Shown here in pieces: positions 1,642 through 60,037 of a DNA stretch of 64,000 nucleotides. This DNA is from an uncultured Methanosarcinales archaeon. Lineage in GTDB: Archaea; Nanobdellota; Nanobdellia; Woesearchaeales; GW2011-AR9. The position numbers and the translations under genes are program-made. The notes under the pieces were generated by a model. That model searched no databases. It saw only the letters and a program-made list of their open reading frames with translations, and was not told the origin of the DNA. Numbering within the stretch: the first letter of the stretch is position 1; each line of letters begins with the position of its first letter. The stretch covers positions 16,054 through 80,053 of the forward strand of contig CAYFMJ010000003.1 in NCBI GenBank assembly GCA_964344235.1, read 5' to 3'.

Positions 1642-2835
1642 CTAAAAAGCTGTGAGTTTTGTTTGATGTTTTCTTTCTTTCATTAATTTACTCTGTTGTA
1701 GGAAGACGGAGATGTCAACGCCGAATTTTCGTTTGGCGAATTGTTTTGCGTAATGTAGCATTAGTTCTTCAGAAGCAAAGTTGATGGGGTGGGATTGCAC
1801 ACTTTTTCTGGCTGATTCTCGACAAACCCATACTCCTAACGGGAGATTATACTGAGAGGTGATAAAGCGGAGGGCTAAACAGCTATGCTGCCGTTTGAGT
1901 TTCTTCATTTGTTCGAGGATTGGGAGACGTGCAGCGTAATAACCACCTGCAGTCTCGTCAGCGTATTTTTTTCTTCCTTTATAGTTCTCATAATCGGTTG
2001 AGTAGGAGAAGCCCTGTTTGCTCCAGGGATTACTTTTGAGGTAGAGGTATGTTTCAAATAATTCATAACTCCAGACTTCTGGGAAGAAGAGGAATAAGTA
2101 GTAATTCCCCCAACCACCACCAAAATACGCTTGATACTCTCCCGTAGGGAAGTCTTTAATTTCTTTGATTAGTTGTTTACCAATCGTATCATCAGTAGCG
2201 GTAATAGACCATCTGGTGGGAACGAGTTTTCTATTGTTTTTTAATCCTAAATTGCCAACCGAGAGTAGTTTGTGGAGAGTGTTTTCTTCAAAGCCCTTTT
2301 TGTAAAGGTTGAGGATTCCTAGGTTTGCTTTCAAATCTGTATCGTAGACGACTTTCTCTACTCTTGTATCTGTTTTGATGTTTTCTGTTACTCTAGCTTT
2401 CTGCACTTCACTCGCAGGACCGTACGGAATGATTTCTTTTTCTTGCTTTGTGGAAAGTTTCGGTGCTTTTTTTAGGGAGACTTCCAAGTCAGCAGCTTTC
2501 TTAGCCATGCCAACTTCCTGGACGATATCTAAGAATTTTCCACCCTTTTGTAATTGTTTGACAGACCATTTAGTTCTACTGTTCACTAAGCTGTATCTCT
2601 TACTAGCGATAGAACCAATAGAGGCGTTATTTTGACTCCATAATCGGGGAGAATCATATTCTTGCATTTCTCCGATAAATTGTGGGGAAAGAACACCAAT
2701 GTTTACGTGAGGGTAGCCATATCTACCAATGAATGGGGCAGGGGCTGAGCCTTGGAATTGTTGTTTGAAATGTGTGTTAACTTTTAATTGAGGAATTTGT
2801 TCAATATCTTTGAATTTGACACGGTGAATGTTCAT
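1642..2835 (-). CDS. nreA: NreA-like DNA repair protein (Nre_N/Nre_C, archaeal COG1602)
   Basis: N-terminal GSAPAPFIGRYGYPHVNIGVLSP matches the Nre_N hallmark GSsPPSVFVGRyGYP. Length ~400 aa. Confidence 0.55.
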   Translation of the reverse strand: MNIHRVKFKDIEQIPQLKVNTHFKQQFQGSAPAPFIGRYGYPHVNIGVLSPQFIGEMQEYDSPRLWSQNNASIGSIASKRYSLVNSRTKWSVKQLQKGGKFLDIVQEVGMAKKAADLEVSLKKAPKLSTKQEKEIIPYGPASEVQKARVTENIKTDTRVEKVVYDTDLKANLGILNLYKKGFEENTLHKLLSVGNLGLKNNRKLVPTRWSITATDDTIGKQLIKEIKDFPTGEYQAYFGGGWGNYYLFLFFPEVWSYELFETYLYLKSNPWSKQGFSYSTDYENYKGRKKYADETAGGYYAARLPILEQMKKLKRQHSCLALRFITSQYNLPLGVWVCRESARKSVQSHPINFASEELMLHYAKQFAKRKFGVDISVFLQQSKLMKERKHQTKLTAF

Positions 2836-3647
2836 AATTTATCATAGGGACTTTGGATGTTTAATAATTTCGGTGCTGCTAAATGAGTATAGATTAACGT
2901 AGTTTCTAAATTTTTATGGCCTAAAAGTGGTTGAACGTCAGTCACAGCATAGCCGTTTTCGATTAAGTGAGTAGCAAAAGAGTGACGCAACATGTGTGGA
3001 TGAACGTGTTTACTTATTTCGGCTTTCTTTTGTGCTTTACTGAGAATTCTCCGCACTGAGGAAGTCGTCATATGACTTTTATGTCCCCGGAATAGCCAAT
3101 CGTCATTTGTTAATTTATGTTCTTTAATCCATTGAGTGATTTCTTCTTTCAATTTCTCTGCAATAATAAAAATTCTATCTTTCCCTCCTTTACCGTTTCT
3201 CACCCAACCATAATTGCTGTCAAAGTGAAAGTGTTTAACTTTGAGGTGAACTAGTTCAGATACTCTCAATCCAGCTGAGTACATAAGGGTTATCATTAGC
3301 TTATGTTTTCTATTGTTGATGACTTTTAATAGTGATCGTACTTCATCTTGCTGTAAAAATCCTGGCAGAGATCTTCGTTGTTTTGCCATTGGAATGTTAA
3401 TTGTTAGCCTCTTATGCAAAACTTTTTCATACAGAAATTTGAGTGCACCTAAATGAACGTTCTGAGTGTTACCTGACTTGTGATATATACGCCGTAGGTG
3501 TTTCTCAATGTCTTTCTTTGTGACACTGTGGACATCTTTCTTGTATGTTCTCAGAAATTTTTGAATAACGCATATATATGTTTTAATCGTTCTTGGAGAA
3601 TAATTCCTTTTCAGTCCTTCTTTTCTAATTAACTCAGCAACATTCAT
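2832..3647 (-). CDS. xerA: Tyrosine recombinase, XerA/XerCD-like
   Basis: C-terminal catalytic region HPHMLRHSFATHLIENG ... LGHKNLETTLIYTHL (R..H..R..Y) and a SAM-like N-domain. Confidence 0.85.
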   Translation of the reverse strand: MNVAELIRKEGLKRNYSPRTIKTYICVIQKFLRTYKKDVHSVTKKDIEKHLRRIYHKSGNTQNVHLGALKFLYEKVLHKRLTINIPMAKQRRSLPGFLQQDEVRSLLKVINNRKHKLMITLMYSAGLRVSELVHLKVKHFHFDSNYGWVRNGKGGKDRIFIIAEKLKEEITQWIKEHKLTNDDWLFRGHKSHMTTSSVRRILSKAQKKAEISKHVHPHMLRHSFATHLIENGYAVTDVQPLLGHKNLETTLIYTHLAAPKLLNIQSPYDKL

Positions 3648-3741: not shown

Positions 3742-3931
3742 AGTTTTTTGCGTTATGGGATTGAGTAGAGGCTTTGAATTCAAAGAATTTCACTAAGTGC
3801 AATAAAATTCTCATTAAAACGGAAACTACGTTGGGGTGCTCTTTGGATGTAAACTCTCTTCTTTAACTTGATAAAAACTAACGAAAATTCCACTTTAAAC
3901 TCAATGTAAAAAACTATATAGGCGGGAAGAT

Positions 3932-8160: not shown

Positions 8161-9303
8161 TTATTCTGGAGGGACTATCCCCTCAAGAGGAGGCTCTCCT
8201 TTGGGTACACAAACAAGATATGTACACCCGGTTACTTCATAATCTACTTCTTTTCTTGGCTCAACGTCATCTCCTTGGGCTAAGCAACTTTCCTCTTTAA
8301 GACTTAGTTCCTCCTCGGAGGGACATTCGCTACACCTAATTTGCCCACATGGCCAATCCTGTCCCTCAAACCACTCAGAGTATTTGTATGCTAAAAAGTT
8401 CTCTCCCTTAGCTTGACAGTCGATCGTAGCTTTCTCTAAAAGAGGTTCAGGAGTACATTGGCTTATTTCTCCGCCAGCACAATAAACCGTCTCACATCCA
8501 TTAGCATCGGGTAATGAGAATGGTTTCAGGTCACCACAATCTTGCTTCATTTCAGCTAGTGCTTCATCAGTAAAGCATCCATTCTTTCCTAACTTCGTTA
8601 AGTCTCCTTTCTTAGGAAGGATTGTAATCGGCGCTGCACAAATATCATTGTCATCTTTATCTGCAACTATCACAAAATATACGGTTTTAGTGGTGACGTC
8701 ACCCCAATCACAACTGGTGTCACTAATCTTTAAACTTGCTGGAACTGCTGTTTTATAGGGGTGGTCTGAACTCTTTCCATAACGTTCAAATTGATCGCAA
8801 GAAATGCTAACTTTTTCGTATTTTAATGTTTCATCTGTAAATGTAATATCAACTTTTACATTTTCATTCCCTTTTGCTTCTTCCTTGGCTAAATCTATTG
8901 TACATTTCGGATTTTTTACTGTAATATCGGCAAGTGCCATCTCTGCTGCCCGCTCTTCAACAACTTCAATCTGCTCCTCAATAGCTTCTTCTTTAATCTC
9001 TTCTACAGTTTTAGGTGGAGTAATAGATTCTGTTTCCATTTGCTTATCCGGTTCAACTACTTCTGCATCAATTATTGGTGGGCCACCCTCACCTTCTCCT
9101 CCAATCGAACTCACTTCATCACTGCTCTGGTCATAAGAATTTTCAGCAGACTTTTCGGAACCAGTAAACAACTCAATAAAAAAACTTTTCACTTTACAGA
9201 AAAAGCCACATTCTTCATCAGAACTAGATGTCGCTTCCGCGTGAACCATAAGTGTACTTACCATCAAAACTAATATACACACAACAACCAACCTCTTTTT
9301 CAT
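8161..9303 (-). CDS. Secreted cysteine-rich protein with a signal peptide and an acidic low-complexity linker
   Basis: N-terminal MKKRLVVVCILVLMVSTLMVHAEA, an E/I-rich linker, and more than 20 Cys in the C-terminal half. Confidence 0.55.
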   Translation of the reverse strand: MKKRLVVVCILVLMVSTLMVHAEATSSSDEECGFFCKVKSFFIELFTGSEKSAENSYDQSSDEVSSIGGEGEGGPPIIDAEVVEPDKQMETESITPPKTVEEIKEEAIEEQIEVVEERAAEMALADITVKNPKCTIDLAKEEAKGNENVKVDITFTDETLKYEKVSISCDQFERYGKSSDHPYKTAVPASLKISDTSCDWGDVTTKTVYFVIVADKDDNDICAAPITILPKKGDLTKLGKNGCFTDEALAEMKQDCGDLKPFSLPDANGCETVYCAGGEISQCTPEPLLEKATIDCQAKGENFLAYKYSEWFEGQDWPCGQIRCSECPSEEELSLKEESCLAQGDDVEPRKEVDYEVTGCTYLVCVPKGEPPLEGIVPPE

Positions 9304-9382
9304 ACAATTAGTAAACTATTTTTAATATATAAATATTCTCCTTTCTATTTTTACCACACTACAGAACTTTCTATGTGGAATA

Positions 9383-9772
9383 CTACTCGCGTTTCATATT
9401 CACTATCGTTTCAAAGCCGCCAACTGCCATGCGTTTCATATCAAATACTTTCATACACTCTTCCTTAGCTTTGTCTTGATCTTTCTTCATTTCTTTCATC
9501 ACGCTGGCGTTAACTTTATCCCTGTGTTTTCGGGATCTATATACAACATACGCAAAAATGATTGTTTCACCTATCTTTGGTTTCACCAATGTTGGGAATG
9601 GTAAACAACCCCATTTCTTGGCACTGTTTAGGTCCTCACCAACACATTCAACGTACTCTAAAGCCCCATGCTTAATCCAGAACTTTCCTGCTTCAGAAGC
9701 CATTTTCTTATATTTAGCCAAGTTCTTTGTAGGAACTGGCAAAACATATCCATCAACATACCGCTTTTTCAT
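9383..9772 (-). CDS. DUF1428 (YbaA-like) family protein
   Basis: N-terminal KRYVDGYVLPVPTKNLAKYKKMA matches the DUF1428 start M.YVDGFV.PVPK. Confidence 0.5.
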   Translation of the reverse strand: MKKRYVDGYVLPVPTKNLAKYKKMASEAGKFWIKHGALEYVECVGEDLNSAKKWGCLPFPTLVKPKIGETIIFAYVVYRSRKHRDKVNASVMKEMKKDQDKAKEECMKVFDMKRMAVGGFETIVNMKRE

Positions 9773-9817
9773 TGTACTTTAACTATAGTAATATTCTATT
9801 TAAATATTTGCAAATAG

Positions 9818-10945
9818 TTACTCTTGCAAGAATTGCATGAAATCACTCTTGTTCTCAAGCGGTGTTCTCGTTGGTCTTCCTAAATCTTTCCGTGCACCTT
9901 TGTTCACTTTGATCTCTAAAAGAACCGGCCCTTCCATATCCTTAATCTCTTTCATCTTTGCTTTAATCTCTTCCTCAGTTTCTGCAGAAAACGCTGCTTT
10001 GTACCCGTTTGCTACAGCGATCTGAGGGATATTAATAGCATCAGCCGCTGTCGGCTGCCCACCAACAGAATCGTGTGCAAAGTTGTTGAAGACAATATGT
10101 TTAAAGTTATGAGGTTGCATTTGTCCAACACTCGACAATGCCCCCATATGCATAATCAATGCACCATCACCATCAAAACAATAGACTTTCCGCTGAGGTT
10201 TTTGCAAGGCAATACTTAAAGCAATAGATGAGGAATGGCCCATACAACCAACTGTTAAGAAGTCACGATGATGACCAAGATCATTATTTGCACGAAATTC
10301 AAATAATTCCCTCGATGTTTTACCGGTGGTAGAAACAACAATATCAGAATCGTCTAGTAATGGAGCGACGAATTTGACTGCGTCTTCTCTATTAAACGCA
10401 TAATTGGTTACTTTCTTGTTTTGTAATTCGTATTTTTCAAAGGTTCCTTTCCTAACAACAATTGCAAATGGCTTGTTATGTTTTGTCATATGTGCCGTTG
10501 CTTTTGTCATAAGTTTTTGAGCTTCTTCAATGGAATCTGGAAGAATGCCATACTCGATGCCTAGTGTGTTTAATTGTCCTAATGTTACTAACCCCTGCTT
10601 AACATGTTGTGGTTCATCTTTTTTACCTGGTTCCCCACGCCAACCAATGATTAAAAGCATTGGAATAGAATACGCATGAGGGTCCGTTAGTGAAGTTAAC
10701 GGATTGACACAATTTCCCAAACCAGAATTTTGCATGTAGACAACTCCCATTTTTTTGGTTGCTAAATGGTATCCTGCAGCAAGAGCGATGGCATTCCCTT
10801 CATTTGCAGCAATAATGTTGTTACGTGGTTGAACATTATCTGTAATGAATGCACAAAAGTCTTTCAGTAATGAATCTGGGGCTCCTGCATAGAAAGTGAA
10901 ATGATATTGTTGGAATACGTCAAATAGTTCCTTTGGAGAGATCAT
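9818..10945 (-). CDS. ThDP-dependent phosphonopyruvate/sulfopyruvate decarboxylase family enzyme
   Basis: GAPDSLLKDF, IIAANEGNAIALAAGYHLATKKMGVVYMQNSGLGN and LLIIGWRGEPGKKDEPQH are hallmark blocks of Ppd/ComDE. Length 375 aa. Confidence 0.6.
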   Translation of the reverse strand: MISPKELFDVFQQYHFTFYAGAPDSLLKDFCAFITDNVQPRNNIIAANEGNAIALAAGYHLATKKMGVVYMQNSGLGNCVNPLTSLTDPHAYSIPMLLIIGWRGEPGKKDEPQHVKQGLVTLGQLNTLGIEYGILPDSIEEAQKLMTKATAHMTKHNKPFAIVVRKGTFEKYELQNKKVTNYAFNREDAVKFVAPLLDDSDIVVSTTGKTSRELFEFRANNDLGHHRDFLTVGCMGHSSSIALSIALQKPQRKVYCFDGDGALIMHMGALSSVGQMQPHNFKHIVFNNFAHDSVGGQPTAADAINIPQIAVANGYKAAFSAETEEEIKAKMKEIKDMEGPVLLEIKVNKGARKDLGRPTRTPLENKSDFMQFLQE

Positions 10946-41204: not shown

Positions 41205-41780
41205 ATGCGTAAAATGTCAAAGGAAGACCATAGTGGAAATGTTTTAAGAAGACTTGATGCAACTCCCTACAACGACAACATATGTCCTGAAGCTGAAGGA
41301 ACATTTAGAGGAGACTTAGTTGCTGCTATAACACTTCGAAATAATCTGGGAGATACTACATTTGCACCTTATGTTAACCCTGATTATGTTCGCGGACAAG
41401 TTGTATCTGCTGCACCGTTTCCAAACCAAGTTAGGGATCCAATGTTTAGTACTAGAGAAGTATATTACGGTTCACATTTTGCATTTCTCGTTCGTCCGGT
41501 AGATGAGGGGGGGCGCTCTACTCAACGATTTTATGGAGTACCGTTAGTGATGCAGGACATAGTCTCTTTAGAGGATAGTGGAATTCTCGATCGGGAAATT
41601 AGTACGGTTCGAGTACAGGGAAACCTTACAGTTAGGGATGATAAACTTCTTGGCTATTTAAGTGAAATTGCTGGTGAAAGCGAACCCAGGAGACGTAATC
41701 AGGACGTTCTATTAAATCTAACCTATAGACAATTTTCGAAGCTTATGAAAGGGAAGAAAGCCCGCCCTTCGAAGGGGTAG
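41205..41780 (+). CDS. Hypothetical protein (Gly/Arg/Val-rich, atypical composition)
   Basis: ORF only. Confidence 0.35.
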   Translation: MRKMSKEDHSGNVLRRLDATPYNDNICPEAEGTFRGDLVAAITLRNNLGDTTFAPYVNPDYVRGQVVSAAPFPNQVRDPMFSTREVYYGSHFAFLVRPVDEGGRSTQRFYGVPLVMQDIVSLEDSGILDREISTVRVQGNLTVRDDKLLGYLSEIAGESEPRRRNQDVLLNLTYRQFSKLMKGKKARPSKG

Positions 41781-41881
41781 AAGTACAGAGAGTCACGGCA
41801 TTAATTCCGGTTAACGGGGCTGCATACCAAACCGAGGCACGAGGTTTTGCAATACAAACAGACTCCGAAGAACAACATTCG

Positions 41882-42322
41882 ATGTGTTTTGCCTATGGAA
41901 TTGGAGATACGGTCTTCCGGGGTAGACCAATCGTGGGAGGGGGCACTGCAAACTTCGGAAATGGGAGAGCATTAACAGATATTGATTCTGGAGGAAGAGA
42001 AGCCTTTTTTGATGTTAGAACTTTACAAGATCATGGCGGTTCTGGTGGGGAAGCTGCTGTTGGGAATCTCGTTGTCGTAGCACTGCCATTAGTTGGTGAA
42101 AAAAGAGTTCCGCCACCATCTTTACGCACGCCTAGTACCCACTCTCTTACGATGGGAGTAGATCTTGCTCAGCTGGCAACCGGGAGGAGGACGGGGACTT
42201 CAAGCAGATTGGTCCCTGGAACATTTGATACAACAAGAAGAATTAGTATCATGGATGTAAGACTTCTCACAGTAAGCCCCGAGGAAATGATTCCCGAAGG
42301 CATTGAAATGTTGCTTAGTTAA
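41882..42322 (+). CDS. Hypothetical Gly-rich protein; its 3' end overlaps thrS convergently
   Basis: ORF only; higher local GC. Confidence 0.3.
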   Translation: MCFAYGIGDTVFRGRPIVGGGTANFGNGRALTDIDSGGREAFFDVRTLQDHGGSGGEAAVGNLVVVALPLVGEKRVPPPSLRTPSTHSLTMGVDLAQLATGRRTGTSSRLVPGTFDTTRRISIMDVRLLTVSPEEMIPEGIEMLLS

Positions 42323-44483
42323 TGGATCTCCCTTCAATTTCTTTTACTACATCAGCAATAAAATCTTTGGTGGGCATGTCGAACTTTGTTTCGCCGTTGC
42401 GTAATCGAACTGCAACGGTGTTGTTCTCTTGCTCTTTATCGCCAATCGTCACAATATAATTAACGTGTTCCATTTGGGCATCACGAACTTTCTTGCCCAT
42501 AGATTCAACACGATCGTCTAACTCAACTCGAATGCCAACCAATTTCATTTCAGTTACCAATTTCTCTGCTGCGTCTTTGTTTCTATCGGTAATCGTTAAC
42601 ACTTTAACTTGCACAGGAGATAACCACGTGGGGAATTTACCGGCAAAATGTTCGATCAAGACAGACATAAATCGTTCTAAAGATCCAGAAATAGCACGGT
42701 GAATCATCACGGGCCGTTCTTTCACGCCTTCTTTATTCATGTAATGTAATTCAAATCGCTCAGGCAGGTTGAAATCTAATTGAACTGTAGCAAGTTGCCA
42801 TTCTCTTCCTAAAGCATCTTTAAACATGAAGTCTAATTTAGGACCGTAAAATGCTGCTTCTCCCAGAATTTTTTTGAATGGTAAGTTGTTTTCTTGTGCA
42901 GCTTCTTCTAATGAAGATTCAGCGATGTTCCATACTTTTTCTTCACCGAGGTATTTTGACTTGTCCTCTCCTCGAACGGAAAGCGATACCCAGTAATCTT
43001 TATCCATACCAAGTGTTTTATAGAATTGTAAGATGATGTTCACGATCGTTTTTACTTCTTGTTTAATCTGATCTATTCGACAGAAGATATGGCCATCATC
43101 CTGTGTAATGGAACGTACACGAGATAATCCAGTCAATTGACCTGCTTTCTCATCTCTGTATACGGTTGTTGGTTCAAAGAATCGGATTGGAAGGTCACGG
43201 TAGCTGTAGTTAAAGTTGTCAAAAATTTGAATGTGGTGAGGACAGTTCATTGGTTTCATCACAAAATTTTCATGTGCTCCTTTCACGTGGAATAGTTCTT
43301 CACCGAATTTATCCCAATGGCCTGACTTTTTGTAGAGGGAATCTTTGGCAATATGGGGAATAGATACTTTTTGATAGCCTTTGTCTTGATGGAGAGACCA
43401 AAGGAAGTCCGTAATTGCATCTTTGATAATCATTCCTTTTGGTGCGATTAATGGTAAACCAGCTCCTACTAAGTCAGATACTAAGAAGAGGCCCTGCTCT
43501 TTTCCAATCTTTAAATGGGAACGATTTGCTGCAGCTTCTTGTTCTTTTTTGTATTCCTGTAATTTTTCTTGTGAGTCAAATGCAACCAAATTAATACGGG
43601 TTAATTGTGTATTTTTCTCATTATTTTTCCAATACGCGCTAGAGATGGAGAGTAATTTTATTGCATTGATTGGCGTTGTGGTGAAAGGTTTAGGGAATAA
43701 TGGGGTGACTGTTGTGTTTGCTGCAGTATAGAAAGTTGGTTCTTTCAAATCGTGAGCGATTTGTTGCTGTAATCCGGTTGGATTCCCTTCTGGTTGGAAT
43801 GTTGTGTCTTTCCGTAGTTCTTTAACTTTCTTTGTAATTCTATTAAGGTCGTCCTGTCGTAGTTTAACGTTAGAGACGTCAACATATGCTTGATCGTGAT
43901 AAAAGCCAACAGCGCCCATTTCAGCATTTTCATATAATTGTGTTACGGCGATTCCTGTTAGGTAGGCAGCGGTTAATTTTACTTTTTGATCATCTGTTAA
44001 TGCTTCTGTGTTAAATGTGAACGGCTCGTCTTTGTAATCTCTCTTGAGAGAGGTTGCTTGTTCTTCACCGCTAAATTCCCTACTTAATTCTGATAATGGA
44101 TGGCCTTTACATGCAATAGTGAAAGATTTATACCAGCCAAAAGGCGCTCGATAGACAGAGAATTTTTGCTGTAGTTCCTGTTGTGCGTCTTTGAGAAATT
44201 GTTCCGCTATTTTAGGAGATGCTAAGTCTGAACTCAGATGTGCGTACGGGTACAAAACAATATGTTGTGGATTAACTTGCTGCGCAATATTTTTGATTTC
44301 CTGCAAATAGCGTTTCATCACTGCTTCTATGTTCTTCTCATCTCGCTTTTCAACAGCGGTGAAGATAACTAAACATTCTTCTACTTTTTCCTGTTCTGTG
44401 GAGATATTTTCCTCAGCGCCTTTGAAGGCCTGCTTTTTCGCTTGAAATTCGATGAAATCTGCGTGGATTGCTAGGATTTTCAT
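42315..44483 (-). CDS. thrS: Threonine--tRNA ligase, archaeal type with the N-terminal archaea-specific editing domain
   Basis: N-terminal MKILAIHADFIEF...VIFTAVEKRDE, class II motif 3 HRAISGSLERF, and a C-terminal anticodon-binding domain. Confidence 0.85.
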   Translation of the reverse strand: MKILAIHADFIEFQAKKQAFKGAEENISTEQEKVEECLVIFTAVEKRDEKNIEAVMKRYLQEIKNIAQQVNPQHIVLYPYAHLSSDLASPKIAEQFLKDAQQELQQKFSVYRAPFGWYKSFTIACKGHPLSELSREFSGEEQATSLKRDYKDEPFTFNTEALTDDQKVKLTAAYLTGIAVTQLYENAEMGAVGFYHDQAYVDVSNVKLRQDDLNRITKKVKELRKDTTFQPEGNPTGLQQQIAHDLKEPTFYTAANTTVTPLFPKPFTTTPINAIKLLSISSAYWKNNEKNTQLTRINLVAFDSQEKLQEYKKEQEAAANRSHLKIGKEQGLFLVSDLVGAGLPLIAPKGMIIKDAITDFLWSLHQDKGYQKVSIPHIAKDSLYKKSGHWDKFGEELFHVKGAHENFVMKPMNCPHHIQIFDNFNYSYRDLPIRFFEPTTVYRDEKAGQLTGLSRVRSITQDDGHIFCRIDQIKQEVKTIVNIILQFYKTLGMDKDYWVSLSVRGEDKSKYLGEEKVWNIAESSLEEAAQENNLPFKKILGEAAFYGPKLDFMFKDALGREWQLATVQLDFNLPERFELHYMNKEGVKERPVMIHRAISGSLERFMSVLIEHFAGKFPTWLSPVQVKVLTITDRNKDAAEKLVTEMKLVGIRVELDDRVESMGKKVRDAQMEHVNYIVTIGDKEQENNTVAVRLRNGETKFDMPTKDFIADVVKEIEGRSIN

Positions 44484-44592: not shown

Positions 44593-44856
44593 ATGGTTAA
44601 TAGTTCCGATATCCCTCGAAACGCAATACATGCCTCTGCTAGTCCGGGAGATGTGGTTGAAGTTCTCTTTCAAACACCTGATGGAATGGAGAGGTTTTAT
44701 TTCACAGAAGAAGGTTTAGTCAACCCTTTTGGAGCAGCATATCCTCACACTGGAACTCCAACCATTTCATTAGATGGAGTTGTTGTAGAAGGTGATGGCA
44801 GGGAATATCATTCCGGGGAGGAAGGATTTCACTTGCAGAGTATATCGCTTATATAA
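44593..44856 (+). CDS. Hypothetical protein ending 2 nt before the island's left repeat cluster
   Basis: ORF only. Composition resembles the fragmentary ORF at the island's right flank. Confidence 0.35.
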   Translation: MVNSSDIPRNAIHASASPGDVVEVLFQTPDGMERFYFTEEGLVNPFGAAYPHTGTPTISLDGVVVEGDGREYHSGEEGFHLQSISLI

Positions 44857-44977
44857 ATTTTTCGTTACTTATGAGTGAAAAAAGTCACGAATCCCCAAAA
44901 ATTCGTTTTTCATTACTTTAAGTGGTTACAGAGTGCCGAGATTTTCGTTACTTTTTTGCCAAAAAGAGGTGAAAAAG

Positions 44978-45298: not shown

Positions 45299-45517
45299 TA
45301 CAATTTCAGGACTAAACGGTATGTAGTCGGATTTTGCGGTTACATATCAAAAAGAGGTGGTAAAGGAGGCTTCAACAATAGATTTGAGGCTAAAAAAAAG
45401 AGCATTTTGTGGAGCATTTTGCTCAACTTGTCTTGAAAATTAACAAAAATTCACAACACCATCAAGGCTCGCTGAGAAATATGAAGTTGAGTTATTAACA
45501 AAAAAGAGGTATCAAAT

Positions 45518-48819: not shown

Positions 48820-51792
48820 ATGGGTGTTTTTAGAGGAGTTAAATATGAGCTTTCGGATGAGGACAGAGTACTTGGCGGAAAGAGTAGAAGCCCAGCAAAA
48901 ATAGCAGCTGCTAAAGTCAATGCTTTAAAGCATGGAAAATCATCTAAGGACCCCACAATAAAAGAAGCAATTACTCCTACATCTAAAGAGAAAGCACTAG
49001 GAATTACGACTTCTGATAAAATCAAGCAGCTTAAGAGATTAAACCCTTTATTTGCAAGTGAAAATAGATTCAATTATTTATATGGGGTTCAGGAGTTCTT
49101 AGGGGAATTACTAGTTTCTGCATTGAGAAAGAAAAAGGAAGGTAAGTCAACAGATTATGAATATAGGCAACTTACTAGATTGAGTTTAGAGTTGTTTGAT
49201 AGATTCTATGGCAAGCCAGATACTATTGTGAATGTACAGCAAAATTTGGAAGTTACGGAAAGTGTTTTACTTACTCCTACGGCTGCACCTGTAGCAGCAA
49301 AAGGATTAATCTACTTTGACAGCACAGCCAATAAGATCAAAGTTTCGGAAGATGGAGCTACGTTTGTAGATCTTGGTGGAGATGTTACAGAAGTAATTGC
49401 TGGTTCTGGATTGACGGGCGGAGGAACTGGTGGAAGTATTACTCTTGATATAGGTTCAAGTACTGGGATAATAGTTAATGCTAATGATATTGCCGTTGAT
49501 GTTGGTACAGGACCAAACCAAATTGTCCAGTTAGATGGGACTTCCAAACTTCCCGCAGTGGATGGAAGTCAATTAACAAACTTACCTTCAACGCCAGGGG
49601 AAACAACAACTGGCGTTAATAGAGAACTTAAGCAACAAATTGAGGTAGTAGAATTATTAGAGGTTAGTAGTTTAACATCTTTAGTTGGTGTTAGTGAAGA
49701 TATAATTGTTGAAACATTCTCTGACGCTGATGGATTTAACAATTTAGTTAATGTTAGTAATACGGATGCTACTCATGATTTGCCTAGCAAAAGATACAAA
49801 GCAGAATTTGTTGCTGGCGGTGGTGGTTTAATCATTGATGATTTTGACAGAGCCGATAGTGCTACCGTAGGAAACGGCTGGACTGAAGTTGAAACAACAG
49901 GAAGTACATGGTCAATAGTAAGTAACAGAGTTAAATGTGATTATGAAGGAAGCAGTGATCCAAATATTCATAAAAATATTGGAAATCAGCCAGCATTTGA
50001 TATCAAGGTTAAGTGGGAATCTACAAATGTTAATATAACAAGGCCCTCTTTAGCGGTAAATGGTGATGGAATCGCACCACAAAATGGTTTATCGATGAGG
50101 GCTACTTCTAGTAGTGGTTTTGGAATTACAAGAAATGGAAGTGTACTTGCTTCTACATCTTTCACTTTCTTAGACAACACTGAGTATTTCTATAGACTAC
50201 AGTGGAACGGCTCTACTTTGAAAGGAAAAGTATGGAAAGCAACAGATGCAGAACCTGGAAGTTTTCAACTAAGTACAAGCACCACTACGGTTACGGACAA
50301 TGAAGTTACTTTATCCTGTATAGCAAATGCAAGTGGTTCTGAGGATGTGTTCTTTGAAGATTTACAATTCGTAGGAGAAACAATAGAAACGATTGATGAT
50401 TTTAATAGAGCAAACTCTGCTACTGTCGGCAATGGATGGACAGAGGATGAAGGTTTTGGGACATGGCAAATTCTTTCAAATAAAGTAAGAGGAGAAAGGA
50501 CATCGGATGGGAAAGTGACTATGTTTAAAACACTGGGTAATAAAAGTAGTATGATTCTTAAATCAAAGGTTAATCGTACAACGACAGTCGCTACTCTCAA
50601 TTTCAGAATGGGATTTAATTCTACTTCCGGAGATGTTAATGCAAGTGGATTAACTCTCCTTGTTGAAGATAGTGGGTCTATTTTAAGTCTATTAAGAGAA
50701 GGTGTAAGTTTAGCTAGTACCACTTTCACAGTTGATGAGAGTACAGATTATTTTATGCAATTATCTTGGGACGGTTCAACGTTCAAAGGAAAAATCTGGA
50801 AAACTTCTGAAAGCGAGCCATCTGGTTACCAACTCTCCGCAAGTACTACAAATTCAACTGGAGATAAAATTGGATTCACTATCAGTGGTGGTGGACCTGC
50901 AACTGGAACAATTGATTGGGATGATGTGGAGATTCCTGCCAATACTGGACTTGCCGCAACCATAGATGACTTTAACAGGGCCAATTCAACAACAATTGGA
51001 AATGGATGGACAGAAGATGTGGGAAACTGGGAAATTTCTGGTAATGAACTAAAGGGGCCAGTTGATAACAGCAATCCGCGAATTACTAAAGACATAGGAA
51101 ATAGAGGGACATTTAACGTAAAAGCAAAGATTAGAAGAGAAGATACTAGTTTTAGATTTAGCATGGAGATCAACAATACAACTCCTAATTTATCTACTGG
51201 AATGAAAATTGCATATGATGATAGTACTTTTAGCATTGGTAGAGCCGCTACAGGACTTGCATCTACACCTCTTTCTTTTCCAGCAAACACAGACCATTTT
51301 ATGAGATTGCAGTTTGATGGAACTGATTTGAAAGGAACCCTCTGGGACGCTTCCGGAGCTGAACCAAGTCCTCAACTTTCTGCAACTACTACAAACACAT
51401 CTGGGACAGGTATCTTACTTCGTAATGATAAAGCTGGAGGAGGCATTGGTCTATCACAGTTTTGGGATGAAATAATCGATGAGAGTATTACTGGCACTGG
51501 ACCGGGGATAACAGAAAGAAAAGTAGAATTAGATTTACCAACTATAAGCGGAACAGTCACTGATACTCAACTTGCTTCCCGATTTAATTTGGAAACTGGA
51601 AATGAAATTAAGTATGAATTGGAAGATGCAAGTGCTAACAAAGATACCGACTTAGCATTTGATACCAAGAATACTCTCACAAATCTTGTATCAAACCCAA
51701 CAAAGTTAAGGATATTGTTAAAACGAGGAACAGGTGGTTCAGTTGACGAACCAAATGTTAAATCAATAGCAATGAGATTATTCAAATCATAA
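48820..51792 (+). CDS. Large tail-fibre-like repeat protein (990 aa)
   Basis: The segment GSGLTGGGTGGSITLDIG...IVQLDGTSKLPAVDGSQLTNLPS resembles the phage tail-fibre / chlorovirus glycoprotein repeat. It is followed by three ~200-aa tandem repeats (IDDF[DN]RA[DN]S.T[VI]GNGWTE... G[ST].[LF]KGK[VI]W...EP...LS.ST). Confidence 0.6.
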   Translation: MGVFRGVKYELSDEDRVLGGKSRSPAKIAAAKVNALKHGKSSKDPTIKEAITPTSKEKALGITTSDKIKQLKRLNPLFASENRFNYLYGVQEFLGELLVSALRKKKEGKSTDYEYRQLTRLSLELFDRFYGKPDTIVNVQQNLEVTESVLLTPTAAPVAAKGLIYFDSTANKIKVSEDGATFVDLGGDVTEVIAGSGLTGGGTGGSITLDIGSSTGIIVNANDIAVDVGTGPNQIVQLDGTSKLPAVDGSQLTNLPSTPGETTTGVNRELKQQIEVVELLEVSSLTSLVGVSEDIIVETFSDADGFNNLVNVSNTDATHDLPSKRYKAEFVAGGGGLIIDDFDRADSATVGNGWTEVETTGSTWSIVSNRVKCDYEGSSDPNIHKNIGNQPAFDIKVKWESTNVNITRPSLAVNGDGIAPQNGLSMRATSSSGFGITRNGSVLASTSFTFLDNTEYFYRLQWNGSTLKGKVWKATDAEPGSFQLSTSTTTVTDNEVTLSCIANASGSEDVFFEDLQFVGETIETIDDFNRANSATVGNGWTEDEGFGTWQILSNKVRGERTSDGKVTMFKTLGNKSSMILKSKVNRTTTVATLNFRMGFNSTSGDVNASGLTLLVEDSGSILSLLREGVSLASTTFTVDESTDYFMQLSWDGSTFKGKIWKTSESEPSGYQLSASTTNSTGDKIGFTISGGGPATGTIDWDDVEIPANTGLAATIDDFNRANSTTIGNGWTEDVGNWEISGNELKGPVDNSNPRITKDIGNRGTFNVKAKIRREDTSFRFSMEINNTTPNLSTGMKIAYDDSTFSIGRAATGLASTPLSFPANTDHFMRLQFDGTDLKGTLWDASGAEPSPQLSATTTNTSGTGILLRNDKAGGGIGLSQFWDEIIDESITGTGPGITERKVELDLPTISGTVTDTQLASRFNLETGNEIKYELEDASANKDTDLAFDTKNTLTNLVSNPTKLRILLKRGTGGSVDEPNVKSIAMRLFKS

Positions 51793-52661: not shown

Positions 52662-52768
52662 TTATTTTTATAAATCTCTTTTCACACAGAAGCCTATACC
52701 ACCTCTTTTTCCCTATTTGGAGTCGAATCCCTACTCCATCAATCTGGCGAGGGAAAGTAGCGCCAGAT

Positions 52769-53224
52769 TTAGGGTTTTTTTAATCGTTCTCCCACATCCT
52801 TCCTTAACGTAGAAACATACAATTTCAATTGCACTTCAACTTCTCGCCATTCTTTATCTGTGATTGACTTTCCTTCATAATGTGTTCTGTTTCTCATAAA
52901 ACGGACTTTCTCAAAGAAATTCCAATCTAATTCTAGTTCAGGAAACTTAACACAGATATATGCAAAACATCCCTGATGGTTACTACATTTGACTTTTTGC
53001 AGGCGAAGCAGAATGTCACACAATTCCCTTAGTGAATCATAATAAAGAAGAAAAATTACACGCCAGTTAATGACTTTCTTAGTAATAAGGGTTTCTGCAA
53101 ACTGTACATTATCAGCAGCAATATCGTACATTCTTTGAAGAGCAAGTTCATCTATATCTTTTTCTCTATACTCTCCTGCTACTGTTACTTTATCATAAAT
53201 TTCTTCAGCTGTCTTTTCAGGCAT
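52769..53224 (-). CDS. HEPN-domain protein (HepT-like toxin)
   Basis: RNRTHYEG is an Rx4-6H-type motif near the C-terminus of a ~150-aa helical protein. Overlaps the MNT gene by 8 nt. Confidence 0.55.
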   Translation of the reverse strand: MPEKTAEEIYDKVTVAGEYREKDIDELALQRMYDIAADNVQFAETLITKKVINWRVIFLLYYDSLRELCDILLRLQKVKCSNHQGCFAYICVKFPELELDWNFFEKVRFMRNRTHYEGKSITDKEWREVEVQLKLYVSTLRKDVGERLKKP

Positions 53225-53759
53225 GAATGCTCACCGTAAATGGTTCTATTTTTCCTTTAACATGTATTCCTGCAAGGATATTAGGTATAACATTCTCAAT
53301 CCTTTTTAATTTTTGCGGGTCTTCGTATTCAAAAAGTTGAATTTCCCTCTTAAAAATGCGTTCAAACTTTCCTTGTTCAAATTCATCAGCATTACCATAG
53401 ATAAATAGATCAATATCACTCTCATAATCCCAATCAGCTCTAGCAAAACTGCCAAAAATAATGACTGTTTTGGCCTTGGGTAAGGAACTGAGGTGTTCTA
53501 AAAATCCTGTCTTTTCAAATTGCTGGAAAGCATAGAGCCTTTTCTCCATCTTGAATTTTACATTTGTGTAGTTAGCAATATAATATGGCATTTTGCCTTT
53601 AGGTCTAAATTTTTTTATGAGCTCTTCCTTAGTTAATTTTTTAAGCCATTTATTGGTGCTAGTTCTACTTAATCCAGACTTCTTTACAAGGTCGTCAAAG
53701 TGCCAGTGCTTCGTTGAATAATTGAAGAATAGCTCTTTAATATTCTCTTTTTGTCTCAT
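53217..53759 (-). CDS. Minimal nucleotidyltransferase (MntA-like) with an N-terminal HTH
   Basis: GSFARADWDYESDIDLFI = GS.AR.....SDIDL signature. Confidence 0.65.
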   Translation of the reverse strand: MRQKENIKELFFNYSTKHWHFDDLVKKSGLSRTSTNKWLKKLTKEELIKKFRPKGKMPYYIANYTNVKFKMEKRLYAFQQFEKTGFLEHLSSLPKAKTVIIFGSFARADWDYESDIDLFIYGNADEFEQGKFERIFKREIQLFEYEDPQKLKRIENVIPNILAGIHVKGKIEPFTVSIHA

Positions 53760-56998: not shown

Positions 56999-57850
56999 AT
57001 GCTACCAAATAGAATAAGGTATGTGAAAATGGGTAAATCAACCCTAGCGAAAAAAATAACGGAAGAGGAATTGCAGACATTCTTTGACGCAATTCCAAGA
57101 GTGACAAAAAGGAGCACGTATTGGCTCACATTGTTTATGACTCTAAGCGATGCTGGGCTTAGAGCAGGTGAGGCAGTGAGATTGAAAATAAATGATATCC
57201 ATCAGGAGAAGAATATCATTACAGTACACCAGCAAAAGAATGGCGTAGATCATGAAGATACGCCTTTTACTCAAAGGTTGAGAGAACAACTCAACAAATT
57301 TATTGCCTTATATCATAAACAAATCAAAGAGAGTGGGGACTATATGTTCTTCACTCAATATACAGTTAGGGGTCAAGATGTTATAGGCGAGGGTGAGCAC
57401 ATTAAGACTTCTAATTTACGAAAGATGTTCAATAAAGTAAGGGCTGAAGCAGCCACTGTCATGCCAAGCATAGGAAGAGCTTATACAAAGAGGACAACAA
57501 AAGACGTTACCAATGGTAATGCTCCATGTAAGGCACTTGGCAGGCCTCTGATGGTAATTACGCCCCACACTTTAAGACATCGCTTTATACAGCGAATAGC
57601 GGACCAGGAGGGACTCTTTAAGGCCCAACAGTGCGCTAGACACCTACATTTTTCTTCTACCTTAGTCTATGCAAAAAAGAGCATGAAAGCAAAAGTTGAA
57701 GCAATAAACAACACGTTTGATTCCGAGAAGAAGGACCAAGCAGAAGAGATTAATGAATTAAAAGAACAGGTTGCAAGCCTTACAAAAATGCTTCAGGATA
57801 ATATGAATATTCTGAAGTTCATTAAGGGGGTGAATGGAGGAAATGAATAA
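56999..57850 (+). CDS. int: Tyrosine recombinase / phage-type integrase
   Basis: Catalytic residues in GLRAGEAV (R), HTLRHRFI (H..R) and LVYAKKS (Y). ATG at 56999 after GGAGGTGG; the track start at 56954 is TTG. Confidence 0.75.
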   Translation: MLPNRIRYVKMGKSTLAKKITEEELQTFFDAIPRVTKRSTYWLTLFMTLSDAGLRAGEAVRLKINDIHQEKNIITVHQQKNGVDHEDTPFTQRLREQLNKFIALYHKQIKESGDYMFFTQYTVRGQDVIGEGEHIKTSNLRKMFNKVRAEAATVMPSIGRAYTKRTTKDVTNGNAPCKALGRPLMVITPHTLRHRFIQRIADQEGLFKAQQCARHLHFSSTLVYAKKSMKAKVEAINNTFDSEKKDQAEEINELKEQVASLTKMLQDNMNILKFIKGVNGGNE

Positions 57851-58118
57851 GCAAGAAACCAAATATCTCTTAGAAGTTTACAAAGATTGTCTAAAACTTG
57901 AAAGGCAGAACCAATTAACAGAGCATGGTGCTGGAATGGGCGAATTAGCTTCTATTCTTCTCAAGAAGCACAGAGAATTCAAGCATCTGAAAGAAAGGGA
58001 GAAATTGAAATGCCTATCTTGTAAGAAGGCTTATTGGGTATCTAATGAAGAGAGATGCGTTTTTTGCGATTCAAAAAAGGTAGTGAAGGCAAATGCCCCT
58101 CTACCAGTTAAACACTAA
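57834..58118 (+). CDS. Small zinc-ribbon protein (CLSCKK...CVFCDSKK)
   Basis: C-x2-C...C-x2-C motif. Confidence 0.4.
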   Translation: MEEMNKQETKYLLEVYKDCLKLERQNQLTEHGAGMGELASILLKKHREFKHLKEREKLKCLSCKKAYWVSNEERCVFCDSKKVVKANAPLPVKH

Positions 58119-58134
58119 CTTGGAGGTAATACCA

Positions 58135-58440
58135 ATGAAAGAAAACAAAAAACTAGCCGTAGGCATAAAAAAGGACTTTACTAAGAAGAAATCCGGAAGA
58201 AAAAGAGTATCACACAGGGAAGTGTGTTATAGAATTCTAAAGGAGAGAGGTAAGCCAATGCATTACAAAAAAATAACGGAAGAAGTTCTAAAGGAATGTA
58301 AGTCAGTAGGTAAGACTCCGCAAAATACAATGTATGCTAGAATGTTAACAGACAAGAAAAGATTCAAACTTCTTGGCAAGGGAAAGTTTGCTCTCTTAGA
58401 ATGGGAAAACAAAGCGAAGGTGATTAAGAATGCCAAATGA
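58135..58440 (+). CDS. Winged-helix (Mrr_N/HARE-HTH-like) small DNA-binding protein
   Basis: VSHREVCYRILKERGKPMHYKKITEEVLK pattern; ATG at 58135 after GGAGGT. Confidence 0.35.
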   Translation: MKENKKLAVGIKKDFTKKKSGRKRVSHREVCYRILKERGKPMHYKKITEEVLKECKSVGKTPQNTMYARMLTDKKRFKLLGKGKFALLEWENKAKVIKNAK

Positions 58441-58786
58441 AATTGGAATTGTATCTAAAGTCAAACCACGGGACAAAACTTACAGTGTTGCAGTAAACAA
58501 ACAATGGTTTGGTGGTTTCGGTAAGTGTCCTGTACTTGAAGGAGAAACAGTGAAAATTGAATGGAAGCAGAAAGGTGACTTTAAGAATATATTAAAAATA
58601 GAGAAAGTAGAACCTGTATTTCAAGATGAGCTACAACAAGCTCCTGAAATTGATTCTAGGATCAATGATATAAGGCTTCAGGTTTGTGTAAAAGCTGCAG
58701 CCGGAGTGTTTGCAGGAACAAAAATCAACCCATCAGAAATTGCTGAGTATTCAAGGAACTTGTTTAAGGAATTGTGGGGGAAGTAA
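58430..58786 (+). CDS. Hypothetical protein
   Basis: ORF overlapping its neighbours by a few nt. Confidence 0.35.
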   Translation: MPNEIGIVSKVKPRDKTYSVAVNKQWFGGFGKCPVLEGETVKIEWKQKGDFKNILKIEKVEPVFQDELQQAPEIDSRINDIRLQVCVKAAAGVFAGTKINPSEIAEYSRNLFKELWGK

Positions 58787-58787
58787 T

Positions 58788-58970
58788 ATGACTAAAGCAA
58801 CAGAAGAGCTAACAAATGAGAAACAAGACAGCATAAAATTAAGCAAGAATTCAAAGGGTTATGTCTGGGAAATCAAACGATATTACGATTTCTCAAAGAC
58901 AAAGCCAGAAGATGTAATTAAACAGCTTGGAGAGATAGATAAAGAGCTTAAAGAGAAATTTGGAGGTTGA
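58788..58970 (+). CDS. Hypothetical small protein
   Basis: ATG immediately follows the previous stop. Confidence 0.3.
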   Translation: MTKATEELTNEKQDSIKLSKNSKGYVWEIKRYYDFSKTKPEDVIKQLGEIDKELKEKFGG

Positions 58971-58976
58971 ATTATC

Positions 58977-59234
58977 ATGAGTGAATGGTTTAAGAAAAAG
59001 TTTCCTGGGCTTACTAGTGAAGTTGGAGAAGTGACTCAGAGAGAGTGGAAGGAGGCAAAGAAAGCTTACTTAGAATGGAAGAAACAGGAAATGTTGTCTC
59101 CGGAGAACATTGAAAAACATTGTCTTGATAAAGAGCTGGTAAGGAAAGCAGTGGGAAAATTAATTTTATTGAATCAAGAGGATCCAAAATTAAGAAAGTG
59201 GTACAATGTTATCACAAAAGAACTGGGCCTTTGA
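58977..59234 (+). CDS. Hypothetical small protein
   Basis: ORF only. Confidence 0.3.
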   Translation: MSEWFKKKFPGLTSEVGEVTQREWKEAKKAYLEWKKQEMLSPENIEKHCLDKELVRKAVGKLILLNQEDPKLRKWYNVITKELGL

Positions 59235-59403
59235 GAGCAAAAATGCGGAAACCGAAAAGCATAAATAGATGTACTACTTTACTCATTCTAGACATGCACT
59301 TAAAATTAAGTGTGTGTAAAAAGTAACGAAACACCACAAAAAAAGTAACGAAAACTGAAAAATGCCAAGCGTAACGGAAATGTGGGAACTCGTGAATTCT
59401 TAA

Positions 59404-59997
59404 GCAACGGAAATAGGCAATTATCGTGACTTTTTGAGTTTACCAATAATTCAAGGAGAACTTCGTATAAATATTGATGGGCGTTTTTTAGCAAGTCCCG
59501 ACAATGATTTCTTAGCTGTAATAAGGGATGATGATTAGAGAGTTGGTTGCTTATATGGCCAGGGAAGTAGGTTTTTTCGAGCTGGAGATTTTGGAAACCA
59601 AGAAGCTGCAAGAAGATATTTACAGGAGTTAGAACCCGAAGTCGCCAGGTTTTTTGGTTATGGAAGAAGGTTACCATGGCAAGTTAAAAAATTGAGAGAT
59701 TTGTCTCAAGGAAAGGATCTGCCACATGACCCCAAGATGGATGGTGGGAGTGATGTTGTTAGAAGAGAAACTATCGATACACTACTTCTAACCACAATTA
59801 TTTTTGAGACGGAGCCAGGGAAGAGTGCTTTTGCTACAGTTTATGCAACTCCCGCACCTCTTGAGCAAGGAGTAGTTGACAGAGGGTGTTTATATCTTGA
59901 CGTAGCACAGATATCTGACCCGGGAGGCATGCACATGCCTGCAGCTTCTGTATTTGAACGAAAGGCCAGGAGAAGGTGTATAAGAGAAGTGTGGTAA
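59404..59997 (+). pseudogene. Gene remnant at the island's right flank: one frame is open from 59404 to 59997 but is interrupted by an in-frame TAG at 59536-59538 and has no ATG (the track ORF 59692-59997 begins at TTG)
   Basis: Manual frame tracing. Composition resembles the left-flank ORF 44593-44856. Confidence 0.3.
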
Positions 59998-60037
59998 TGA
60001 GCATACATTTTTAAATCTTGAGAATCTCTTTAGAATC

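Follow-up and report, generated by a model that had tools for sequence, protein, structure and literature searches.

Inverted motif arrays flanking a provirus-like island in a Woesearchaeota-like archaeal genome: candidate attachment sites of a small tyrosine integrase

A 14.5-kb island (ca. 44.9-59.4 kb) in a Woesearchaeota-like DPANN archaeal genome bears TTTCGTTAC-type motifs repeated at both of its ends, which raises the question of what these motif clusters are and which protein they serve. Unless another contig is named, coordinates below refer to the window, by which we mean the whole 64-kb stretch of DNA that was analysed. An earlier, sequence-only reading of the same DNA had described the clusters and offered several explanations for them; its claims are taken up where our results bear on them.

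Motif arrays at both ends of the island

Each end of the island held 5-6 copies of the motif, mostly directed inward. The copies and the sites associated with them were as follows.

44859-44874, + strand: L1, motif copy TTTTCGTTACTTATGA, core CGTTAC at 44863-68, the outermost copy at the left end
44878-44893, - strand: L2, motif copy GATTCGTGACTTTTTT, a CGTGAC variant
44899-44929, + strand: degenerate stretch of the left end, containing ATTCGTTTT, L3 and GGTTAC
44901-44909, + strand: weak copy ATTCGTTTT, with CGTTTT at 44904
44907-44922, + strand: L3, degenerate motif copy TTTTCATTACTTTAAG, with CATTAC at 44911
44924, + strand: weak copy GGTTAC
44942-44957, + strand: L4, exact 16-mer TTTTCGTTACTTTTTT at the left end
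59317-59332, - strand: R2, motif copy GTTTCGTTACTTTTTA at the right end
59339-59354, - strand: R1, exact 16-mer TTTTCGTTACTTTTTT at the right end
59365-59380, - strand: R3, degenerate copy, with GTAACG at 59371-76
59387-59414, no strand assigned: core-like site ACTCGTGAATTCTTAAGCAACGGAAAT, with inverted half-sites CGTGAA (+) and GCAACG (-) around a 7-bp TTCTTAA
59391, + strand: half-site CGTGAA
59404, - strand: R4, GCAACG at the right end
59421-59436, + strand: R5, motif copy TTATCGTGACTTTTTG, a CGTGAC variant

All of the end strings that the sequence-only reading had listed were present, displaced by at most 1-3 nt, and the weak copies ATTCGTTTT and GGTTAC and the half-site CGTGAA were additional to its list. 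The left-end copies that start at 44859 and 44907, both on the + strand, read TTTTCGTTACTT and TTTTCATTACTT. Direct reading of both ends bore out the claim of a 16-nt core that is identical in inverted orientation, with TTTTCGTTACTTTTTT occurring once per end on opposite strands. The CGTGAC variant was found only in L2 and R5, which are mirror images of each other with inverted identity over 12 nt, and the core-like site contained a 19-bp imperfect palindrome with a 7-bp centre (59391-59409). The motif contains T4 and T6 runs and, unlike parS, is not palindromic. On the left, L4 ended 8 nt 5' of a GAGGTG ribosome-binding site and 20 nt 5' of the ATG (44978) of the first island gene. TATA-like TATAAAT boxes directed inward lay just outside both clusters, at 44852 and 59466.

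The inverted motif sets were real and non-random. With up to three mismatches allowed, the 16-mer matched the 64-kb window 17 times against 3.7 expected, a count that 0 of 100 shuffles reached, and four of the five copies of CGTTACTT in the 64 kb sat at the two island ends. Gapped local alignment of the right end with the reverse complement of the left end gave a score of 63 over ca. 100 colinear bp, whereas the highest control score was 50, among 1,916 random window pairs as well as among 2,000 shuffles. The claim that the 9-mer TAACGAAAA is overrepresented held as to enrichment and fell short in its figures: there were five occurrences rather than about six, against 1.3 expected rather than fewer than one, and 2 of 100 shuffles reached five. 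A ubiquitous promoter element, the finding that would have overturned the sequence-only reading, was not what we saw, as only two weaker copies (at 3872 and 36041) occurred elsewhere in the 64 kb; no copy was found in other intergenic regions inside the island. A scan for bacterial promoters and terminators gave no matches, its models being bacterial and not applicable to an archaeal host, and structured RNA at the right end was not significant (z-scores of -1.6 and -0.95).

The gene content between the clusters, nearly all of it on the + strand, looks like that of a provirus-like or integrative element. The main features of the island interior were as follows.

46393: phage-type ParB_N-methylase, from the Pfam/PHROG scan of island ORFs
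47738: second methylase of the island
48820-51792: 990-aa protein with weak matches to a virion structural PHROG and DUF7257
52769-53759, - strand: NTase (PF01909)/HEPN-like pair inside the island, the partner being 151 aa
56999-57850, + strand: tyrosine integrase of 283 aa (PF00589, E = 3e-16), the only recombinase of the island
59240-59415, + strand: conserved non-coding block, 75% identical in nucleotides to contig L123 (see below), holding R2, R1, R3 and the core-like palindrome

The island also encodes a PPDK_N protein and several small HTH proteins, including HARE-HTH (58093) and wHTH (55846) types, and the fusion of a ParB_N domain to a methylase is a common phage arrangement. The 990-aa protein was made up in part of three tandem repeats of ~190 aa (DNA repeats 558 and 570 nt apart) and had a fibre-like G-rich segment. 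None of the island ORFs scanned against Pfam and PHROG was recognised as a DDE transposase, Cas1, protein-primed polymerase or Rep; a Rep might still be hidden among the island's ORFans. DDE-transposon ends, Tn7/Mu-type ends and casposon TIRs were not supported, with no DDE transposase or Cas1 in the scanned ORFs and no flanking direct repeat. The same applies to the transposon or casposon TIRs of the sequence-only reading and to its suggestion of linear-element termini, the latter because the island has no protein-primed polymerase and is chromosomally embedded with the same junctions in 7 samples.

The host setting was given by the neighbouring ThrRS gene (42315-44483), whose product has an archaeal editing domain and whose best named matches were Candidatus Woesearchaeota and Nanoarchaeota, at no more than 68% identity. 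In a relative with 67% ThrRS identity, an NTase and 152-aa pair lay directly upstream of ThrRS; by this synteny, the NTase/HEPN-like pair may be host-type cargo and the island composite. No tRNA or Rfam target was found in the 64 kb, and the 87-aa and 98-aa ORFs flanking the island were not halves of a known protein, as checked for insertion into a gene. Several observations concern other parts of the window. Two regions (41205-42322 and 59700-60000) had a G+C content of 44-50%, above that of their surroundings, and oddly composed ORFs with no Pfam match; in one relative, a 292-aa gene unrelated to the window ORFs occupied the 41.2-42.3 kb position. A strong SD-like AAAAAGAGGTGG with no obvious ORF stood at 45349-45378, in a 220-bp gap 3' of the first island gene, and a G+C-rich hairpin followed by T7 (52743-52790) marked the end of the small gene at 52.5 kb.

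The integrase and the conserved block near its gene

Translation of the integrase probably starts from the ATG at 56999, which yields a protein of 283 aa; the N-terminus M-x-x-NRI-x-YVKMGKS is kept in a homologue of 80% identity. Its AlphaFold model (pLDDT 89) consisted of one catalytic domain and a C-terminal helix of ~50 aa, and the neighbours of the model found by Foldseek in the PDB were archaeal XerA, as the best match, along with IntI4, Tn1549 Int, Cre and lambda Int. The island integrase carries the catalytic R-K-H-R-H/W-Y set by which tyrosine recombinases are recognised: R45, K70, H180, R183, R204 and Y214 were invariant across 23 relatives, as was H184, and H205 was kept in at least 90%. 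When 1.84 billion cluster representatives were searched exhaustively with HMMER, only 24 clusters came out with E < 1e-10, and nearly all aligned members of the family were short (220-350 aa). Compared with the PDB, the family profile aligned from residue ~7 at residues 96-134 of XerA, XerC and XerD, where the catalytic domain starts. As the profile begins where the catalytic domain of XerA and XerD begins, the family is catalytic-domain-only, with neither a core-binding nor an arm-binding domain, and the integrase lacks the N-terminal arm-binding and core-binding domains of lambda-type heterobivalent enzymes. No close integrase relatives were found in viral contigs, and the phage database held no related integrase or DNA. 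Archaeal single-domain tyrosine recombinase families have been catalogued as uncharacterised (PMC8371274).

Elsewhere in the window, a full-length XerA-like recombinase with a SAM-like N-terminal domain and a catalytic domain was encoded at 2832-3647 (- strand). The sequence AAAAACTAACGAAAATTCCAC at 3872-3887, ~225 bp upstream of this gene, was similar to R2, both that of the window and that of L123, over more than the core motif, and it is possibly a secondary or pseudo-att site, or else a chance resemblance. The integrase gene (57050-57065) and the HARE-HTH gene (58267-58282) shared the 16-mer AAAAAAATAACGGAAG, which encodes KKITEE in both.

The only close relative of the integrase in the searchable data was P0002, the 80%-identical homologue, encoded on L123, a 1,727-bp contig from an unrelated run (SRR22387952). 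This contig covers the right end only, so that the comparison bears on the right array. In L123 a 176-bp block that is homologous to window positions 59240-59415 came right after the integrase stop codon, and the identity of the block (75%) was about equal to that of the integrase gene (74%). In the window, the integrase gene and the block are set apart by five genes (57834-59234), so it is as a cis-element, not through mere adjacency, that the block has been kept. Five hexamer cores were the same in the window and in L123, in the arrangement GTAACG-22-GTAACG-26-GTAACG-20-CGTGAA-13-GCAACG. Identity was 15/16 in R1 and 24/26 in the core-like site (TCGTGAATTCTTAAGCAACGRAAAT), 64-71% in the stretch between them (59355-59388) and 48% beyond 59415, where homology stopped. 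Conservation fell on the GTAACG cores and the distances between them, whereas the A/T runs were not kept. R5 was absent from L123, the flank of which has a different gene on the opposite strand. This pattern is the footprint left by a cis-acting site that goes with the integrase. The conserved 20-mer TCGTGAATTCTTAAGCAACG had no matches in viral or JGI contigs.

Directly left of R2, a 12+2+12-bp imperfect palindrome (ACATGCACTTAA AA TTAAGTGTGTGT, 59292-59317) was observed, and in the same position L123 had a palindrome (11+2+11, CATACAACCCA AA TGGGCTGTATG, 1314-1337) whose sequence is quite unlike that of the window. The structure beside R2 has thus been kept, whereas its sequence has diverged.

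Three distant relatives of the integrase (~30% identity), on contigs L126, L124 and L127, had related TTCGT/CTTAAG sites just 3' of the integrase gene. On the virus-like contig L126 (14.3 kb), TTAACG-N17-CATTGAATTCTTTAAAGATACGG lay 3' of the integrase gene and aligned with R3, the core-like site and R4; the core of R3 was kept in L126 as well as in L123. In L124, an archaeal MAG, the integrase gene stood at the edge of an ORFan block beside Nop5/fibrillarin, and TTTTCGTTAATTACCTTAAGTAATTAA, the top motif match in 20.8 kb, overlapped the 3' end of the adjacent host CBS gene. In L127, TTTTTCGTTTTCTTTTTGCC was located right 3' of the integrase gene and resembled L4 and its flank. These sites point more weakly than L123 to an integrase-linked site. 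L124 also had a tRNA-Thr (9143-9214) 790 bp upstream of the integrase gene, and between the two (9320-9910) TATTGTGTTACTATTGTG and TGTTACGTAACA were repeated, with a common GTTAC core.

Candidate attachment sites and competing explanations

The explanation that we favour, and that we hold to be probable by a modest measure, is that the two clusters represent the attachment sites, attL and attR, of a provirus-like element of ~14.5 kb that has integrated, with the motif as binding sites for the integrase or accessory proteins. Each cluster would be an array of predicted binding sites of the type TTTCGTKAC, to which the element's own tyrosine integrase would bind, possibly together with a small HARE-HTH or wHTH protein. 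The sites face inward at both ends, and the ends would resemble inverted repeats for that reason. One motif would provide both core half-sites and accessory arm sites, a dual use that we infer because the integrase is catalytic-domain-only. The core half-sites would be weak inverted variants, such as CGTGAA-TTCTTAA-GCAACG at 59391-59409, and the strong copies, R1, R2 and L4, would form a direct array of arm sites. Core and arm sites would together build a multimeric synapse, and L2 and R5 would form the two arms of a palindromic target. In lambda-type prophages, the attL arm sites are inverted relative to the attR arm sites. As in att sites, the motif here was repeated in both arms and inverted between the junctions, and it was co-inherited with the integrase in related elements (in L123, and more weakly in L124, L126 and L127). 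Arm sites of an integrase had been among the options of the sequence-only reading, and this option fits, as the island encodes a tyrosine integrase and the right array travels with the integrase in L123.

An alternative of low probability, and the first to be weighed, is that the motifs are operators for a transcription factor of the element (wHTH, HARE-HTH or another small protein) or T-rich insulating terminators. In that case they would govern how transcription enters at both ends, and L4 would act as a repressor site for the first operon. In favour are the several small HTH proteins of the island, the position of L4 close upstream of the first ATG and abutting the ribosome-binding site, and the TATAAAT boxes that point inward from outside both clusters. 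Oligo-T tracts are termination signals in archaea, and the T4 and T6 runs of the motif would suit this role. However, the motif was absent from the other intergenic regions and promoters inside the island, and the right array faces the 3' end of a convergent gene, where there is no ORF to control. What L123 preserved was the GTAACG cores and their spacing rather than the A/T runs, in a block that is physically tied to the integrase gene. It is possible that operator and att functions coexist at the clusters.

We regard as unlikely, too, that the island is a tyrosine-recombinase transposon of the Tn916/CTnDOT type, with multi-site TIRs, staggered breaks and no need for overlap homology, which had inserted in the L2/R5 palindromic target. 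In its favour, the two ends can be aligned as imperfect inverted repeats of ~100 bp, the Int of Tn1549 ranks among the closest structural matches, and the lack of an identical overlap or direct repeat is expected for heterology-tolerant enzymes. Contigs from three other samples ended inside L1 and R2 with 4-5-bp overlaps, which might represent staggered breaks, but low coverage would account for these breaks just as well, they do not coincide with the boundaries that L123 suggests, and in ERR2281799 they affected one end only. The integrase has no N-terminal arm-binding domain, and a second insertion site of the same element is not known. A bolder extension of this idea is that a minimal archaeal recombinase family moves DPANN proviruses in a transposon-like manner, by way of arrays of a single 9-16-bp motif and a palindromic target made of motif copies, with no identical overlap and with the contig ends representing staggered cuts beside CGTTAC; we consider this speculative and improbable.

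Still less probable is a role in replication or partition, with the repeats being either origin iterons or centromere-like sites that serve the ParB-domain methylase, in a split or duplicated form at the two ends; the sequence-only reading had raised this option, and it did not hold up. The distance of 22 bp between R2 and R1 is typical of iterons, and a protein with a ParB_N domain is encoded at 46393. Iterons form a single cluster in direct orientation, not two inverted clusters at the ends of an element, whereas the clusters found here are inverted and 14.4 kb apart, and no Rep was recognised. The ParB_N domain here is part of a methylase fusion, the motif lacks the palindromic form of parS, and the array of L123 is linked to the integrase instead. 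Lastly, a chance likeness of A/T-rich intergenic DNA, to which a genome of 38% G+C, a T-rich motif and a 9-mer statistic that is weak on its own might incline, has a very small probability and is effectively refuted by the 16-mer shuffles, by the ~3,900 alignment controls, none of which reached the observed score, and by the cores and spacing conserved in L123.

Element boundaries and comparison with known systems

If the clusters are attL and attR, the boundaries of the element most likely lie at ~44893-44900 and ~59415-59420. We place them there because homology with L123 ends at 59415 and because L2 and R5 are the sole CGTGAC copies, in a 12-nt mirror arrangement. The sequence-only reading had set the element ends at the two clusters, and the exact ends are probably different. 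R5 and, by symmetry, L1 and L2 may be target-side DNA, so that L1 may be on the host side of the left junction, and L2 and R5 are candidates for the left and right arms of a palindromic target site. No direct repeat of at least 9 nt was common to both ends, the longest shared direct word being the 8-nt A-run word AAAAAAGT, and the target-site duplication for which the sequence-only reading had advised a search was thus not present at the ends. None of the hexamer pairs formed a core whose overlap was the same at both ends: convergent half-site pairs had a spacing of 21 on the left and 13 on the right, divergent pairs had 20 and 21 with the centres CCCCAAAA and AGGCAA, and the 59391-59409 palindrome had no partner with the same centre at the left end. 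This would reflect either a heterology-tolerant recombinase, or a fixed element with a decayed core, or a misidentified core.

Flanking regions were looked up with the exact proteins of ThrRS, of the 87-aa and 106-aa genes on the left, and of the 85-aa and PIG-L genes on the right. No empty site or circular junction occurred in any assembly with the flanking genes, which yielded only island-bearing or broken contigs, and the junction-spanning contigs from 7 samples all carried the island. In the nearest relatives (ThrRS at most 68% identical), synteny had eroded too far to fix the boundaries, and one of them retained the helicase side only. The contig ends inside L1 and R2, which came from other samples of the same project, were at 44871|44868 (ERR2281799) and 59322|59318 (ERR2281804), with a contig start at 59326 (ERR2281803); they had 4-5-bp overlaps and lay immediately 3' of CGTTAC, and they could be due to low coverage or to site-specific breaks. 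Scans for the motif-pair pattern returned 23 viral, 79 genome and 120 metagenome loci, none with a related integrase or island protein; the genome scan covered species representatives, and the genome of the window was not among them. A homology search with eight small end-proximal proteins, concatenated, gave no matches.

The candidate sites share several traits with lambda att, among them a tyrosine integrase encoded by the element, a short motif that occurs several times within ~100-180 bp of each junction and is inverted between the ends, and a total site of ~275 bp, similar in size to attP. They differ in that the island integrase has neither an arm-binding nor a core-binding domain, that the arm sites and core-like sites appear to be variants of one motif, and that no common core was found at both ends; the host is an archaeon and the window contains no tRNA target. 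In the TnpI/IRS system of Tn4430, a single recombinase-binding motif forms an inverted pair around a short spacer, with adjacent direct repeats. The island has a comparable order, with CGTGAA-7 bp-GCAACG followed by R3, R1 and R2, and likeness extends to Cre-lox, XerA-dif and an FRT with a third repeat. By this analogy, the site arrangement of the island would resemble TnpI/IRS of Tn4430 more than the two-domain Int and attP of lambda. However, these systems resolve or invert DNA within one site, whereas the island sites flank a 14.5-kb element, and both TnpI and Cre have the core-binding domain that the island integrase lacks.

Among archaeal elements, the SNJ2, pNOB8 and SSV types are likewise integrated viruses or plasmids with a tyrosine integrase of their own. 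SNJ2 combines conserved P/P' arms with small accessory proteins, one of them a wHTH protein that is proposed to bind the arms (PMC5861418), and by analogy it offers an archaeal precedent for conserved arms combined with small accessory proteins. The SNJ2 and pNOB8 integrases have SAM-like N-terminal domains, tRNA targets and direct repeats of at least 14 bp, none of which was found in the island, and integrase genes of the SSV type are split by integration, whereas the island integrase gene is intact. Tn916, Tn1549 and CTnDOT resemble the island in their imperfect inverted terminal repeats, in a tyrosine recombinase (the Int of Tn1549 being a structural neighbour) and in needing no homologous overlap, but their N-terminal arm-binding domain and conjugation genes are both absent from the island.

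Integrase sites at the ends of prophages are known; what stands out here is mainly the minimal integrase family and its occurrence in an uncharted DPANN lineage. Next to nothing has been described of the machinery by which viruses of DPANN archaea integrate, and the single-domain integrase families of archaea have been listed but not investigated. The locus brings together a compact integrase (283 aa), a defined candidate site of ~275 bp and a second element that shows which bases matter. Binding and recombination assays can be designed from it, by which it could be learned how a recombinase without a core-binding domain recognises its DNA.
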